A stretch of DNA of 64,000 nucleotides from Eledone cirrhosa (lineage: Eukaryota). The notes beneath the pieces are model-generated. The model saw nothing but the letters and a program-made list of their open reading frames with translations, ran no database searches and had not been told where the DNA came from. Position numbers and translations under genes: made by a program. The first letter of the stretch is position 1, and the number at the start of each line of letters is the position of its first letter. The DNA lies in assembly GCA_964016885.1 (NCBI GenBank), contig OZ024745.1, forward strand, positions 34,596,001 to 34,660,000, given 5' to 3'. Positions 18,073-56,262 of this stretch are shown here, piece after piece.

Positions 18073-18076
<4 letters not shown>

Positions 18077-18205
18077 CTAAGGAAGTGTGGTAAGGAACCA
18101 GATGGACCATAACGCACCAGAGTACTCAATACTTATGGTAGTAGAGTGGGTAATATGAAAATGTTTGCGTTATGGCCCATCTGGTTCCTTACCACACTTC
18201 CTTAG

Positions 18206-18210
<5 letters not shown>
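18073..18210. mobile_element. Short element with ~45-bp terminal inverted repeats in (TA)n
   Basis: AACTAAGGAAGTGTGGTAAGGAACCAGATGGACCATAACGCA ... TGCGTTATGGCCCATCTGGTTCCTTACCACACTTCCTTAGTT. Same family as 30800-31201. Confidence 0.85.
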
Positions 18211-28184: not shown

Positions 28185-28805
28185 ATGTGCATATGTTTCT
28201 ATGTGTGTATGTATGTGTGTGAAGAAAAGATTTGAAACTATTAGGGCTTGTAAGAAAGGATTAGTTAAGTAGGGTTTTTAAGTAATCGGCCCACTCAATC
28301 ACTGACAATGTTATTAATACACTTATAAACCTTAAAGATTTGTTGGAATTCGAAGAAATATTTATTGCATAAAAAAATGTTTCTTCAGATTTCAACAAAA
28401 TTTGCCAAGAGTTTCCAAGAACCCTGTTCATATTAAATTACTCCGTAGAATAATACTTGGAACCTATGTACTATACTGGGTTACACATCTCTTTAATTTT
28501 AACACAAAAGAGCTTAAAATAAATAAATATTAAAACCACTTCCGGCCAGCATGGTATAGCAAGCCACATCGGACACTTAAATAGTTCCTTTATTTTCCTT
28601 AGTCGAAGAGATACTAATCTTGAAATATCAGGTCATATGAATAAATTAAGGTGAAAAAGAACAAACCCTACTTTTTGTCCTTTTTGCGTTTGAATTTTTC
28701 TCTGACCAAAACCTGCAGTCGTGGCTTTCCAACTTCGAATTCTCTATATATAATATATATATATATAATATATAAGAACAAAAGATGGTTAAAAGAGTTC
28801 CATGT

Positions 28806-28874
28806 ATTTTATTATGCGCATTTCAAAAACAAATATCATCATGCAATAATATTTGTGTTTTCATCAGATAAAAC
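28806..28874 (-). ncRNA. Type I hammerhead ribozyme (mirror of 28995-29063)
   Basis: Reverse complement of the plus-strand HHR. The single difference lies in the stem II loop region. Confidence 0.82.
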
Positions 28875-28994
28875 AGGAAGACATGATATGAAGGTTAAAA
28901 AACACTTGTGGATAGTTCAGTTTTAAATCAACATATGTTGATTTAAAACTGAACTATCCACAAGTGTTTTTTAACCTTCATATCATGTCTTCCT

Positions 28995-29063
28995 GTTTTA
29001 TCTGATGAAAACACAAATATTATTGCATGATTATATTTGTTTTTGAAATGCGCATAATAAAAT
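28995..29063 (+). ncRNA. Type I hammerhead ribozyme with palindromic stem III
   Basis: Stem I GTTTTAT/ATAAAAT, CTGATGA (29002-29008), stem II AAACACAAATAT/ATATTTGTTTTT (11 of 12 pairs), GAAA (29045-29048), palindromic TGCGCA, predicted cleavage after AUA at 29056. Confidence 0.85.
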
Positions 29064-29225
29064 ACATGGAACTCTTTTAACCATCTTTTGTTCTTATATA
29101 TTATGTATACTCCAGTCCTACAAACTGTAGAGTGCTTCTTATCCGATATCTGCATTGCTTTATTGTACTACAATAAAACTCACCTCCTACATATATATAT
29201 ATATATATATAGTTTTAATATAGAA

Positions 29226-30799: not shown

Positions 30800-30995
30800 A
30801 ACGAAGGAGGTATGGTAAGGAACCAGATGGACCATAACGCACCAGAGTACTCAATACTTAGGGTAGTAGAGTGGGTAATAGGAAATAGTTTAACCCCTAC
30901 GGCAGAGCTCAAGCCGTTTCGACAGCTATTTCTGAATCCAGAAATAGCCGTCGAAACGGCTTGAGCTCTGCCGTCGGGGTTAAACATTTTCCTAT
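30800..30995. mobile_element. Half-hammerhead palindrome folded at stem II (arms ~30878-30995) with tail
   Basis: Central hairpin GAC(A/G)GCTATTTCTG-AATC-CAGAAATAGCCGTC, then GAAA-CGGC-TTGAGCTCT-GCCG-TC-GGGG. No CTGANGA at the expected position. Confidence 0.85.
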
Positions 30996-31011
30996 ATATA
31001 TATATTTATAT

Positions 31012-31196
31012 ATAACGAAGGAAATGTGGTAAAGAACCAAATGGACCATAACGCACCAAAGTACTCAATACTTAGGGTAGTAGAGTGGGTAATAGGAACA
31101 AGTAGGACCCCGACGGCTGAGCTCAAGCCGTTTCGACGGCTATTCAGAATTAGCCGTGGAAACGGCTTGAGCTCAGCCGTCGGGGTCCTACTTGTT

Positions 31197-31201
<5 letters not shown>
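31012..31201. mobile_element. Second half-hammerhead palindrome folded at stem II (arms 31092-31201) with tail
   Basis: ACGGCTA-TTCAGAAT-TAGCCGT, then GAAA-CGGCT-TGAGCTC-AGCCG-TC-GGGG. Same tail as 30800 but a different loop and flank. Confidence 0.85.
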
Positions 31202-31239: not shown

Positions 31240-31590
31240 AAGTTTGATGAACAGGCAGACACAATTCATCTAATTTTTCTTCTTAGTCCGGAGAAATTAA
31301 CTAAACAAATAATCAATTAAACGGAGCTAAGTTTAAAATGTAAGTTTGAATAAATAGAGGAATGTTGGTAAATATTGGTAAACATATATCTATTATTTCT
31401 TCAAACTTACATTTTAAACTTAGCTCCGTTTAATTGATTATTTATTTAGTTAATTTCTCCGGCCTAAGAAGAACAATTGGGTAAATTTGATGTGCCTGCT
31501 CTTCAAACATATACTTTTATATTGGTCTGATTAATGATTATTTATTTAATTCATTTATTGAGCCACATCGTTGAAGGTGGGCTACACTCC
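31240..31590. repeat. Imperfect fold-back with ~115-bp arms (31240-31510) between TA tracts
   Basis: CCGGAGAAATTAACTAAA...ACGGAGCTAAGTTTAAAATGTAAGTTTGAA versus TTCAAACTTACATTTTAAACTTAGCTCCGT...TTAATTTCTCCGG. Confidence 0.85.
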
Positions 31591-40289: not shown

Positions 40290-40480
40290 GTTTTGCAAGG
40301 TTTTTGATATGAAATCGTGTGTCGAAACAAATATTGTTATACTTGGGGAGGGTCATATTTGTGTAATATTGCCAGAATTAATAACAGAACACACTCACTG
40401 TTTGGTTGGTTTTCGCTTTTCGCTTCTGTGTCTTTTATATCGGTAATCTAATTTATTCGGTCCTCAATGTTCGTATAGTA

Positions 40481-40684
40481 CTATACGAACATGCCAGACA
40501 ACAACACGACGGTAACATAGACAACATAGAAATTAGAATAATATCTAAACATAGAAATGACCCAGCAGATAGGCAAATCAGAGAGGCCAGTGAAATAGAA
40601 CTTAGAAGCCCAAGGCTAAACAGAAAGAATGAATGGAATAACAACAACACCCAAACAAACAACACTGACCTAAGAGAAGTATAA
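40481..40684 (+). pseudogene. C-terminal fragment of PLE GIY-YIG endonuclease
   Basis: LYEHARQQH...IEIRIISKHRNDPADRQIREASEIELRSPRLNRKNEW fits the H...H / R.I.EA..I....P.LN pattern of Penelope endonucleases. Confidence 0.8.
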
Positions 40685-40945
40685 ATAAATAAATAGATAA
40701 ATAAATAAATAAATACATACACAAGCACAATAACAACAAACACATATAAACACACACTAGTAAAGATAGAATACATTAACCAATACACAGTCACCCAATC
40801 ACGAACACACATCAAACAAAACACTTTACACACACGCAAACGCATGCGCAAAGAAGACAAAATAAAATAAACAAATAAATAAATATATAAACAGACTAAA
40901 TAAAGATGGCGTAGAAAATACAATGCAACGGGAGGAAACAATAGC

Positions 40946-40987
40946 ACCACTGACGATGTTGCAGATGTGCAACGAAAGAACTTTGAT
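40946..40987 (+). ncRNA. Minimal type I hammerhead ribozyme
   Basis: CTGACGA (40950-40956), stem II GTTGCA/TGCAAC, GAAA-GAAC-TT, stem I ACCA/TGAT (one mismatch). Stem II covaries with the 564-606 copy. Confidence 0.75.
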
Positions 40988-41569
40988 AAACTATATATAT
41001 GTGTTTGTGTCTATATTGTATCTGTATTATTTTTTACCGTTGGTCAGTCAATGGCAACATTGAGGACCGAATAAATTAGATTACCGATATAAAAGACACA
41101 GAAGCGAAAAGCGAAAACCAACCAAACAGTGAGTGTGTTCTGTTATTAATTCTGGCAATATTACACAAATATCACCCTCCCCAAGTATAACAATATATAT
41201 ATATACATCTTTGAAACAATACGTTACAAAGCCGGGTATTTGAATTACAGGTACAATACACCCAACAGGATTCCACAGAGTTTCTGTCTACTCAATTTCA
41301 CACAAAAGTGTCGACCGCAGACAATAGTAAATTGAATTGACCAAGAGGCCACGCAGCAAGATCGATCCCAAGGTATCATGTTTACGAAAGAACATCTTAA
41401 CCACCCAGACAGGCTTGCATCTACAATATTCTCGTATGAGAGATTTTTTTATGGTGGCAGAAATAGTAATAGAAAATGTTAGTGACAAACCATTAGTATA
41501 TCTAAAAAGTATAAAGTCTGTCTCGCGCCCGGAAGTTTAGCAGGCCGTACATGCGTACATAAAGAAGAA

Positions 41570-53944: not shown

Positions 53945-56262
53945 TTAGTGCTATATTGGTACTTTATTCATCGACTTCTAAAGGATGAAAGCCAAAATTG
54001 ACCTCAGTGGAATTTGACCTCAGAGCGTAGACAACCACAATATCCAGTAATATTGGAGTGAGGGTAAAATCGATTAAGTCGACCCAATACTCAACAGGTA
54101 TTTTAGCGGCCCCGAAGAATGAAACAAATATCGCCTCGGGCGGGATTTCAACACAGAGTGTAAAGGATTATAAATAAATAATTATTTCTTTGTTAGCCAC
54201 TATATATAAATAATTGTTTCTACTTTTGGCACAAGGTCACAAGGCCAGCAATTATCCCAGTACATTACTGGTACTTTATTTTATCGACCCCGTAAGGATG
54301 AAAGGCAAAGTTAACCTCAGCGGGATTTGAACTCAGACCGTAAAGTGGCGTAACTATGCTAGCGTAACTCTTTGCTGCAAAGCATGGCGTCCGACCCTCT
54401 ACCGATACTGCCAATCTACTGCCAATCCAAAAATAATGCAAGGTATTTTATCCGACGCTCAAACGATTTTGTCAATCCGCAGTCTGTTATGTTATATATG
54501 TCCACACATATGCACACAGACACCTATTCATATCACATGTGTATATATATATAGAGAGAGAGGGGGAAGAAAGCGTAAAGATGTTGACATGTTTGTATAT
54601 ATTTATACACATATATATACACAGATGTGTGTGTGATGGAAACAAATAAACACACTTACTTATGTGTGTATGACTACTTGATTATAGTTGCATTTGTATG
54701 TGCCAGTGTAGTTTTTAGCCATTACTCAATAGTTTATAAACTAATTTAAATTATAAAGTTAATTAATTATTTAAACTCTTATTTCATGTAATACCAAATT
54801 ATAATTTTCTTTTCCTTTAATGTTTATAAAGATAATAATTGTTTCTACTTTAGGCACAAGGCCAGCAATTACCCAGTGCATTACTGGTACTTTATTTTAT
54901 CGACCCCGTAAGGATGAAAGGCGAAGTCAACCTCGGCGGGATTTGAACTCAGATCGTAAAGTGACGTAACTATGCTGGAAAGCATGGCGTCCGACCCGCT
55001 ACCGATACTGCCAATCCACCATAACGATAATAATAATTAATAATAATATTAAGTAGTCTTATTTTTATTGTGTACTGTCGTTATATTACCAGGCGTCACT
55101 CTGTGTGACTTGGGATAGGTGTTATTATTGTTTGTGGTATTATTGAGTGCCGAAGGACGATCCATTGGTACAATCGTTACATCGTGGCGAAAAAGTGCTG
55201 GTATTTGTTCTGGCTCTCTGCATTGAAATTCTGCTGAGTTCCACTTTGTCTTTAATCCTTCCGTAGCTGATAAAATAAAGTGCATGAATTATAAAACATT
55301 ATTATTGGAAGTATCGGTAGAGGGTCGGACGCCATGCTTTCTAGCATAGTTACGTCCCTTTACGGTCTGAGTTCAAATCCCACCGAGGTTGACTTCGCCT
55401 TTCATCCTTACGGGGTCGATAAAATAAAGTACCAGTAATACACTGGGTAATTGCTGGCCTTGTGCCAAAAGTAGAAACAATTATTAAGTGTTCTGGAACG
55501 AGAGAGTGAAGCATATAATGTCTTGCAGTATTTAGTTCTGTCCCTTTACGTTCACACTTCAAATCTTGTCGATTTTGACTTTTCAGCCTTCCTAGATTGA
55601 TAAAAGCACAAGTCGGGTATAGGTGTCGATTTCATCAACTAACCCTTCTCGAAATGTGATCTTATTCCTATGTTGAATATACTAATTCTAGCATAAGGAT
55701 GGTAATTTGGTGGAAGGTGAAAGTTGATAGTATCGACCTCAATACTTTAGTACTCTATCGACTCCAGAAGGATGAATAGCAAATTTGACATCGGTGGGAT
55801 TTGAATTCAGAACACAACCATTTCCACCGCCTTCGTGTTTGATACAATAAGTATTGTTATTAAATGCGTTTATTAGTTAAGGGACATAATGCTTTGATGT
55901 ATTTAGTCACACCTTTTTACATTTTAATTTGAGATTATGTCTTCTTCAAGTTCCCGATGAAATAAAATATCAGTCAAGTACTAGAGTCGTTTTAATTGAC
56001 TTTTCCCTCCAAACATTGCTTGTCTTTTACCTAAATTAGAAATCATTATGATGGATGTTGAATGGTAGTATCGGTAGAGCGTCAGACGTTTTGTCGCAAA
56101 TAGTTATGGCCTTTTACGTTATGAGTTCATATACCGCCGAGGTTTGCCTTTCATCCTTATGAGGTCGACAAAATAAAGTACCAGTAACACACTGGAGTCG
56201 ATTTAATCGCCTATCCTTTCCCCAAAAATTGTTGGCCTTGTGACTAAATCAGAAAGCATTAT
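53945..56262. mobile_element. Dense family A SINE cluster (young copies 54209-54420 minus, 54836-55021 minus, 55310-55485 plus, and older copies)
   Basis: Repeated central domain and tail in both orientations. Confidence 0.85.

Follow-up and report, generated by a model that had tools for sequence, protein, structure and literature searches.

The window analysed here, i.e., a stretch of 64,000 nucleotides of the Eledone cirrhosa genome (assembly GCA_964016885.1, contig OZ024745.1), contains two near-perfect palindromes, at 30878-30995 and 31092-31201, whose arms carry one half of a hammerhead ribozyme. This raises the question of how inverted copies of half a ribozyme come to be joined head to head. 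The first-pass annotation of the locus proposed that a cDNA stalled after copying stem II, folded back on the ribozyme's own hairpin and self-primed second-strand synthesis. The comparison with other copies disclosed that the two palindromes are neighbouring insertions of the same Hydra-clade Penelope-like element (PLE), and both are ordinary members of its family.

The palindromes are real, their folding z-scores being -17.9 and -20.2, with none of 200 shuffles equally stable. Since their centres and subfamily tags differ, they represent separate events, in agreement with their description as independent. In each insertion, read on the minus strand, an inverted arm is followed by GAAA, stem III, GTC, GGGG and a tail (Table 1); positions within the element are counted from the G of GAAA, the proximal (S) end lying about 43 nt and the tailed distal (L) end about 120 nt downstream of it. 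The parts previously recognised in the arms (GAAA, CGGC/GCCG around a GAGCTC-containing loop, GTC and GGGG) were all found, except for a GTA instead of GTC in the left arm of copy 1 and a G instead of C11.1 in the right arm of copy 2. The flanks, said to differ, do not: the palindromes are copies of one dispersed repeat, with the same 77-nt one-sided extension (identity 74/80), and both are inserted in (TA)n. In full-length elements, the tail sequence continues towards an ORF, and a second hairpin of the ACTC..GAGT type follows the L end.

Table 1. Features of the two adjacent insertions (window coordinates).
Feature	Position	Strand	Basis
Copy 1, stub inserted in (TA)n, arms head to head, subfamily tag TTAAACATTTT	30801..30995	.	
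Copy 1, one-sided 77-nt tail, ending at the distal (L) end	30801..30877	-	
Copy 1, small hairpin (ACTC..GAGT) located a few nt past the proximal (S) end	30847..30872	-	fold of L330
Copy 1, tailed (L) arm, extending to 14 nt upstream of GAAA	30878..30934	-	
Copy 1, junction and tail-less (S) arm, extending to 16-18 nt upstream of GAAA	30935..30995	+	
Copy 1, S arm: GAAA; GGGG; predicted cleavage	30953-30956; 30976-30979; between 30975 and 30976	+	type I topology
(TA)n target run separating copies 1 and 2	30996..31014	.	
Copy 2, head-to-head stub insertion, subfamily tag TCCTACTTGTT	31015..31201	.	
Copy 2, 77-nt tail, L end at 31015; same small hairpin at ~31061-31086	31015..31091	-	
Copy 2, tailed (L) arm, extending to 10-12 nt upstream of GAAA	31092..31145	-	
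Copy 2, tail-less (S) arm, extending to 14 nt upstream of GAAA	31145..31201	+	
Copy 2, S arm: GAAA; predicted cleavage	31159-31162; between 31181 and 31182	+	

The family is very large. Its 29-nt core has 37,446 exact matches in this 3.0-Gb genome (none for the reversed control), and more than 14,000 exact short palindromes were retrieved, 9,745 with a centre of up to 30 nt and 4,624 with both arms reaching position -18; their centres vary between loci. Long copies carry upstream the sequence ACCCC-(T/C)TGAN(A/G)A-G(C/T)TCGGCTA (3,579 exact matches) and, beyond the tail, the ORF. The parent unit, about 3.57 kb in length and found in tandem, consists of a pLTR, the tail and a single ORF (a 710-aa open piece with YRDD and, downstream, AYIG) encoding an RT with a C-terminal GIY-YIG. 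A search by G/C content for the continuation after the tail gave 231 matches, with nothing in common among the 30 inspected; the continuation was found via the ORF instead.

On sequence grounds, the window palindromes are almost certainly stubs of a PLE of the Hydra clade, an assignment based on motifs and on a by-eye match to the Hydra alignment. The copy L192 contains LRWR (a conservative variant of RWK) and DKT in place of DKG, and the linker motif CNCPDRSIC (CxCX5C) is present, as are CNLC (CxxC) and CKH (CxH) near the end. No CCHH pattern was retrieved from the parent ORF by motif search, and three pieces of this ORF gave no Pfam match at E 0.1. The copies are inserted in (TA)n and exhibit a pLTR, partial tandems, an inverted copy and a one-sided tail. 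As far as the description of the Hydra clade by Craig et al. 2021 (PMC8557442) extends, its members, including Hydra-1_Obim, share the RT with C-terminal GIY-YIG, RW(K/R), DKT, CxCX5C, CxxC and CxH without CCHH, as well as (TA)n targets, the inverted 5'-truncated copy, the one-sided tail and a hammerhead in the pLTR. Judged by eye against the same description, the family is not Hydra-1_Obim; its unit measures 3.57 kb, whereas Hydra elements are generally shorter than 3 kb, and its tail 77 nt against the 30-40 reported. Moreover, its ribozyme combines U3-A8 with a stem II of roughly 50 nt, unlike the canonical Hydra motif, and tens of thousands of stubs dominate, unlike in the Hydra clade as described there.

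Two other identities were rejected. Non-LTR retrozymes are defined, in the part of the preprint considered here, as non-coding monomers that are arranged in tandem and all contain a complete type I hammerhead (bioRxiv 10.64898/2026.07.22.740005); the window copies occur singly, each a stub carrying one half of the ribozyme, and their parent is protein-coding. A MITE or another non-autonomous DNA transposon is contradicted by the 77-nt unpaired tail at one end, by centres that differ from copy to copy and by a sequence that is that of a retroelement pLTR.

As for the ribozyme, the arms do contain the 3' half of a hammerhead, and it is of type I. Long copies possess three helices around the core, G10.1-C11.1, GAAA and NUH; both window copies are devoid of the stem I 5' strand and, as originally noticed, of the first core half. 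The motif CCCC-CTGANGA had been predicted upstream of the CGGCTA stem of longer copies: CCCC, a core half and the CGGCTA strand are indeed there, the core half about 50 nt upstream, but it is never CTGANGA (0/89 distinct long copies). Its type is U3-A8 in 68 of these copies, C3.A8 in 18, U3.G8 in two and different in one, with no C3-G8; the mismatched C3.A8 core (18/89) belongs to an abundant subfamily, whose tag was also found in 5 of the 20 cut-site loci (see below), which counts against the reading preferred below. A strict search for CTGANGA 8-38 nt before TCGAAAC, a range that the native spacer exceeds, yielded 53 matches, and the 30 inspected were unrelated junction sequence or the reverse strand of another family. 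Rfam returned no hammerhead among the best 150 rows for the window, only low-complexity microRNA matches below the gathering score. In most subfamilies, long copies adopt at little cost a type I hammerhead fold whose stem II is long, the constrained fold lying 0.8-3.6 kcal/mol above the minimum in six of nine representatives; in two others, it was 7.0 and 8.6 worse, and the last one, with a mutated GAAA, rejected the constraint. Cleavage by this ribozyme at GUC/GGGG is likely, the indirect indication being the arms that start exactly at GGGG (see below). Similar traits (a 5-bp stem I, an enlarged stem II, G10.1-C11.1 and U3-A8 covariation) are reported, in the portion of the paper covered here, for Cercyon of Schistosoma and for minimal PLE type I hammerheads (Cervera and de la Pena 2014, PMC4209133), where motif pairs on opposite strands are also recorded; the ribozyme described here differs from those in its stable stem III of 5-6 bp, in an insert of roughly 30 nt in stem II and in the C3.A8 core of one subfamily. 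The stem II insert appears to hold a putative transcription start, as discussed below.

The claim that the palindromes turn exactly at stem II is right insofar as the turn falls within the long stem II of the native ribozyme, but their central hairpin is not this stem. It is made of two inverted copies of the stem II 3' strand; the native 5' strand, located ~45-55 nt upstream of GAAA, is absent from both palindromes.

The organization of the insertions follows a simple rule, one arm being tailed (L) and the other tail-less (S). Among 172 distinct short palindromes, 162 are L+S, eight have an unclassified end, two are S+S and none is L+L. The same holds for 25/25 long head-to-head pairs (27 rows, minus an unrelated pair and one with an arm running on into an ORF) and for 19/20 palindromes starting at the cut site, the last being L plus an unclassified end. 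An exception to the rule, an L+L stub, is located at 18076-18206 of the window.

The relative extent of the two arms was compared in 120 of the 162 short L+S palindromes, the other 42 coming from loci picked by likeness to the window copies or by CTGANGA. The L arm reaches further in 47, the S arm in 33 (30 even if all microhomology is credited to L), and the two are equal in 40; in the 25 long pairs, the L arm and the S arm are each the longer one in 11 cases, S exceeding L by up to 3.3 kb, and three are equal or unresolved. The length distribution of the short palindromes is not derivable from these counts, because the samples were partly picked by patterns bounding the centre. A fold-back would nest one arm within the other, yet the tail-less S arm often reaches further; neither arm can therefore be a copy of the other. 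The junctions show microhomology in 70 cases, are blunt in 15 and contain insertions in 35, and no arm reaches -50.

These data bear on the idea that a single cDNA folds back, on stem II or on chance microhomology, self-primes its second strand and joins the target at the S site. Self-priming of this kind is already published for Penelope palindromes, on an antisense template in the account given in PMC3846280. It would fit the microhomology at 70/120 junctions, and 31/120 palindromes are compatible with a simple fold-back from the tailed arm. The two arms belong to the same subfamily in 65/72 palindromes (23% expected at random), which fold-back predicts as well, so that this figure does not discriminate it from two cDNAs. 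On the other hand, 0/120 arms reach the native 5' strand of stem II, required for a fold-back on the ribozyme hairpin, and S exceeds L in 30/120 short and 11/25 long insertions; many centres of 0-1 nt are too short for a loop; and arms of discordant subfamilies, or even of different families, exist. In L143 and L278, the arms come from different subfamilies, differing at several diagnostic sites, and head-to-head joins to a different family were detected at 5/30 inspected loci and at 470-600 of the window. Fold-back on stem II itself is thus largely refuted, and fold-back in general is quite improbable; that each palindrome arose from two separate cDNAs is, conversely, strongly favored. At 470-660 of the window, the tail of the family is found head to head with an arm of family D, i.e., a cross-family chimera, the family D arm containing a complete hammerhead at about 564-600.

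A technical origin was also considered, as fold-back chimeras arise in long-read and amplified libraries. The two arms differ from each other by about 6% on average over 49 nt, the insertions end at the fixed sites S and L and are flanked by (TA)n, and the contigs of two public runs exhibit an approximately tenfold depth step around -18 as well as loose (TA)n ends at L, even though these are contig sets of unrecorded kind that may be the assembly's own source. A sequencing or assembly artefact is hence to be regarded as a negligible explanation.

The palindromes might also have been amplified as a unit from a short MITE- or SINE-like master, with centres varying by later deletions in the hairpin. 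Palindromes are prone to deletion, and some junctions do recur identically at many loci (most of L002-L030 have one centre). However, the same recurrent centre is found in several subfamilies with tags matching on both arms, centres often contain insertions and an extra G rather than losses, and the kilobase-long and cut-site insertions follow the same L+S rule; such a master is very improbable. Central deletions after insertion could still have reshaped short palindromes.

The suggestion that inversion points are not random turned out to be correct, with junctions arising anew at each insertion. In a sample of 53 tailed arms whose selection did not depend on the 5' end, 27 begin in the range from -22 to -7, and the range from -23 to -50 contains no start; the others start further upstream (nine) or downstream of GAAA (17). 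The 161 core-bearing arms peak at -12, -14, -17/-18 and -22, giving a pile-up 12-22 nt before GAAA. Same-strand tandem units restart at -17 to -21 as well (L154, L358 and L359), so that the position of the stop is independent of the inversion. The stop lies in the context TTTTCA(-22)TT(T/C)A(-18)GTC, and in one subfamily TATTTAAA precedes A-18 by 29 nt; we take these sequences to resemble initiator and TATA elements. In Drosophila Penelope, a promoter within the pLTR is known. A splice acceptor (TTTAG/TTCAG) as the cause of the pile-up was rejected, because the arms retain the native AG, often with TTT, and have no common upstream exon.

Two further ribozyme-bearing families do not support the ribozyme hairpin as a turning point, since they turn far upstream of their ribozymes. 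In family B (285 palindromes), most turn at one CATATG located ~120 nt upstream of a complete ribozyme; family C turns ~70 nt upstream of its own, including the member at 28760-29109 of the window. Both have TCA(+1)T at the turn. The family C palindrome in the window is 350 bp long and, with its one-sided tail, occupies 28760-29190, each arm containing a complete minimal hammerhead (CTGATGA at ~29002).

A base not encoded by the element is often found at the -18 end. The native base at -19 is T or C in 104/107 long copies; where both arms reach -18, a non-native G occupies -19 in 1,123 arms and an A in 304. In the first 100 rows of this set, counted by hand, G is on both arms in 33/67 loci, 19 of them with a centre of 0-1 nt. 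The excess is modest in a smaller sample (8/14 at -18), some of the junction C's may come from locally templated insertions, and in family B the added base is ambiguous, the junction itself being palindromic. For L1, an extra 5' G at insertions is a known trace of the cap, according to the section of PMC11702581 taken into account. Carry-over of a cap-derived G into long continuous copies by strand transfer was unsupported (1/107).

A second class of junctions, amounting to ~1% of arms, corresponds to the predicted cut site of the ribozyme and serves as an internal control. A search pattern designed for very short palindromes returned 635 rows, of which the first 100 were scored by hand. There, 55 arms begin precisely at GGGG and are preceded by a non-native base; another 24 (CCCCGGGG) are ambiguous, and 21 extend past GGGG, 10 by one base (mostly the partner's sequence), two by two and nine by three or more. 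At 20 loci picked as unambiguous cut-site junctions, the first added base is A in 19 cases, T in 15 and C in 6, in contrast with the excess of C at -19 (Fisher p 1.5e-6). L360 is a unit-length element running from GGGG to the S end, and both segments of one arm of L361 start at GGGG. No start at this exact site was found among the 53 tailed arms of the unselected sample.

These observations have to be weighed against the possibility that two cDNAs are joined, the stop at -12 to -22 being a stall of the polymerase on a read-through RNA, within the upper helix of its long stem II. The pile-up does fall on the 3' strand of the predicted helix, the arm ends are heterogeneous, and the ORF-bearing copies derive mostly from RNA with the whole ribozyme. 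Nevertheless, a stall would account neither for the specific extra G at -19, which is not added at the cut site, nor for the similar TCA(+1)T at which families B and C stop far from stem II; the tandem jumps start at the same place, and almost no arms end in the loop or in the 5' strand beyond -23. A stall is thus considered unlikely, and the arms probably mark a capped transcript start inside stem II, its position being deduced from DNA junctions and the initiator consensus.

On the whole, the preferred reading, to which a probability of about 70% may be assigned, is that the palindromes are abortive insertions of a Hydra-clade PLE, in which two target-primed cDNAs ran off the 5' end of the RNA and were joined head to head. 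The endonuclease would cut (TA)n, and reverse transcription would begin at S and L, two internal sites separated by 77 nt, each serving one target end. Most short cDNAs would stop 12-22 nt upstream of GAAA, at the capped start of the transcript; the main start would be A-18 and a second one near A-22, inside the stem II insert. The polymerase would copy the cap as an extra C, and host end-joining would trim the cDNAs and join them through microhomology of 1-4 nt or short insertions. Trimming must be assumed, because the ends spread over at least 10 positions, many of them short of -18. In the remaining ~1% of arms, the stop at GUC/GGGG is likely due to a read-through RNA, containing the whole U3-A8 ribozyme, that would have cleaved itself. 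The first core half would be missing from the stubs because RNAs starting inside stem II never contained it. Among 24 distinct copies continuing into the ORF (L274 and L325, picked as palindromes, were left out), no start at -18 to -22 was seen; 19 extend across the first ribozyme half, two begin at GGGG and three within the tail, which implies that long copies derive mostly from read-through RNA or template jumps.

Many single aspects of this system are already published, at least in the parts of the literature taken into account: inverted pLTRs, tails, (TA)n targeting, the Hydra clade, U3-A8 and the idea of self-priming. The origin of inverted pLTRs and one-sided tails and the role of the PLE hammerhead are stated as open questions in PMC8557442 and PMC11167929. 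In PAc (Poseidon of Anolis, Frangieh et al. 2024, PMC11167929), as far as reported there, two adjacent internal RT starts define the tail, and in vitro both strands of an AT-rich target are cut and extended, as would be the case here. In the available portion of that paper, no RNA ends were located at the cleavage site, cleavage was dispensable, and head-to-head junctions were left unexplained, whereas the genomic junctions described here mark both a cap-like end and the cleavage site. The Penelopes of Adineta vaga (Arkhipova et al. 2013, PMC3846280, from the part considered) share head-to-head pLTRs, an optional tail on one arm and a palindrome at the junction; these were explained by self-priming on an antisense template, whereas the present data favor two sense-templated cDNAs. 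Twin priming of L1, in what PMC11702581 offers on this point, shares priming by both target ends, joins with microhomology or insertions and an extra G at full-length 5' ends; however, the second L1 cDNA copies upstream, non-overlapping RNA, while here both copy the same stretch from two fixed starts. In the literature searched, which left subscription papers and bioRxiv supplements outside its scope, no paper was found on cap-marked or cut-site junctions in PLEs and, likewise, none on a cap-marked start inside stem II or on the contrast in added bases. The family supplies thousands of independent junctions that favor two cDNAs and point to a capped start inside stem II. There might be an even chance that the full combination holds, i.e., a promoter inside the element's own hammerhead (only read-through RNA self-cleaving), integration by two starts and two cDNAs at a break, and more than ten thousand "strong-stop" stubs. 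If so, the stubs would map the capped start and, at population scale, would be evidence for in vivo cleavage by a PLE ribozyme and for the use of the cleaved RNA as a template.

Some minor observations can be added. The same-strand tandem units lie at L358:514-1176, L359:3833-4937, L361:3786-4717 and L154:4740-5230, with restarts at -17 to -21 or at GGGG; the breaks of L359 and L361 nearly coincide within the ORF (reference 1113-1120) and may correspond to a common RNA 3' end. Just upstream of AGTCC, some junctions (L081, L105, L109 and further rows) contain stretches of T or A, 10-20 nt in length, perhaps reflecting polymerase stutter on a U-run at the RNA 5' end. In L070, L076, L078 and L086 (from about 1525), the L end of the family is fused directly to 5'-truncated Penelope-like ORFs, belonging to the family itself in L070 and to other families in L076, L078 and L086, which suggests that template jumps occur, some of them between families. 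Next to some insertions lie long ORFs from other Penelope-like families (L125:956-3097, L198:402-2210 and L200:2310-2975), consistent with shared (TA)n targets. L326:783-8106 and L327:913-8237, ~300 kb apart on contig C14, are near-identical tandem dimers of the full element with frameshifts in common, representing either a segmental duplication or an assembly duplicate. Lastly, an AT-rich MITE-like inverted repeat with ~70-nt arms lies right behind copy 2 (window about 31270-31480), and long inverted repeats, 96% complementary, are located at 54833-55486 (183-nt arms) and 40320-41207 (152-nt arms).
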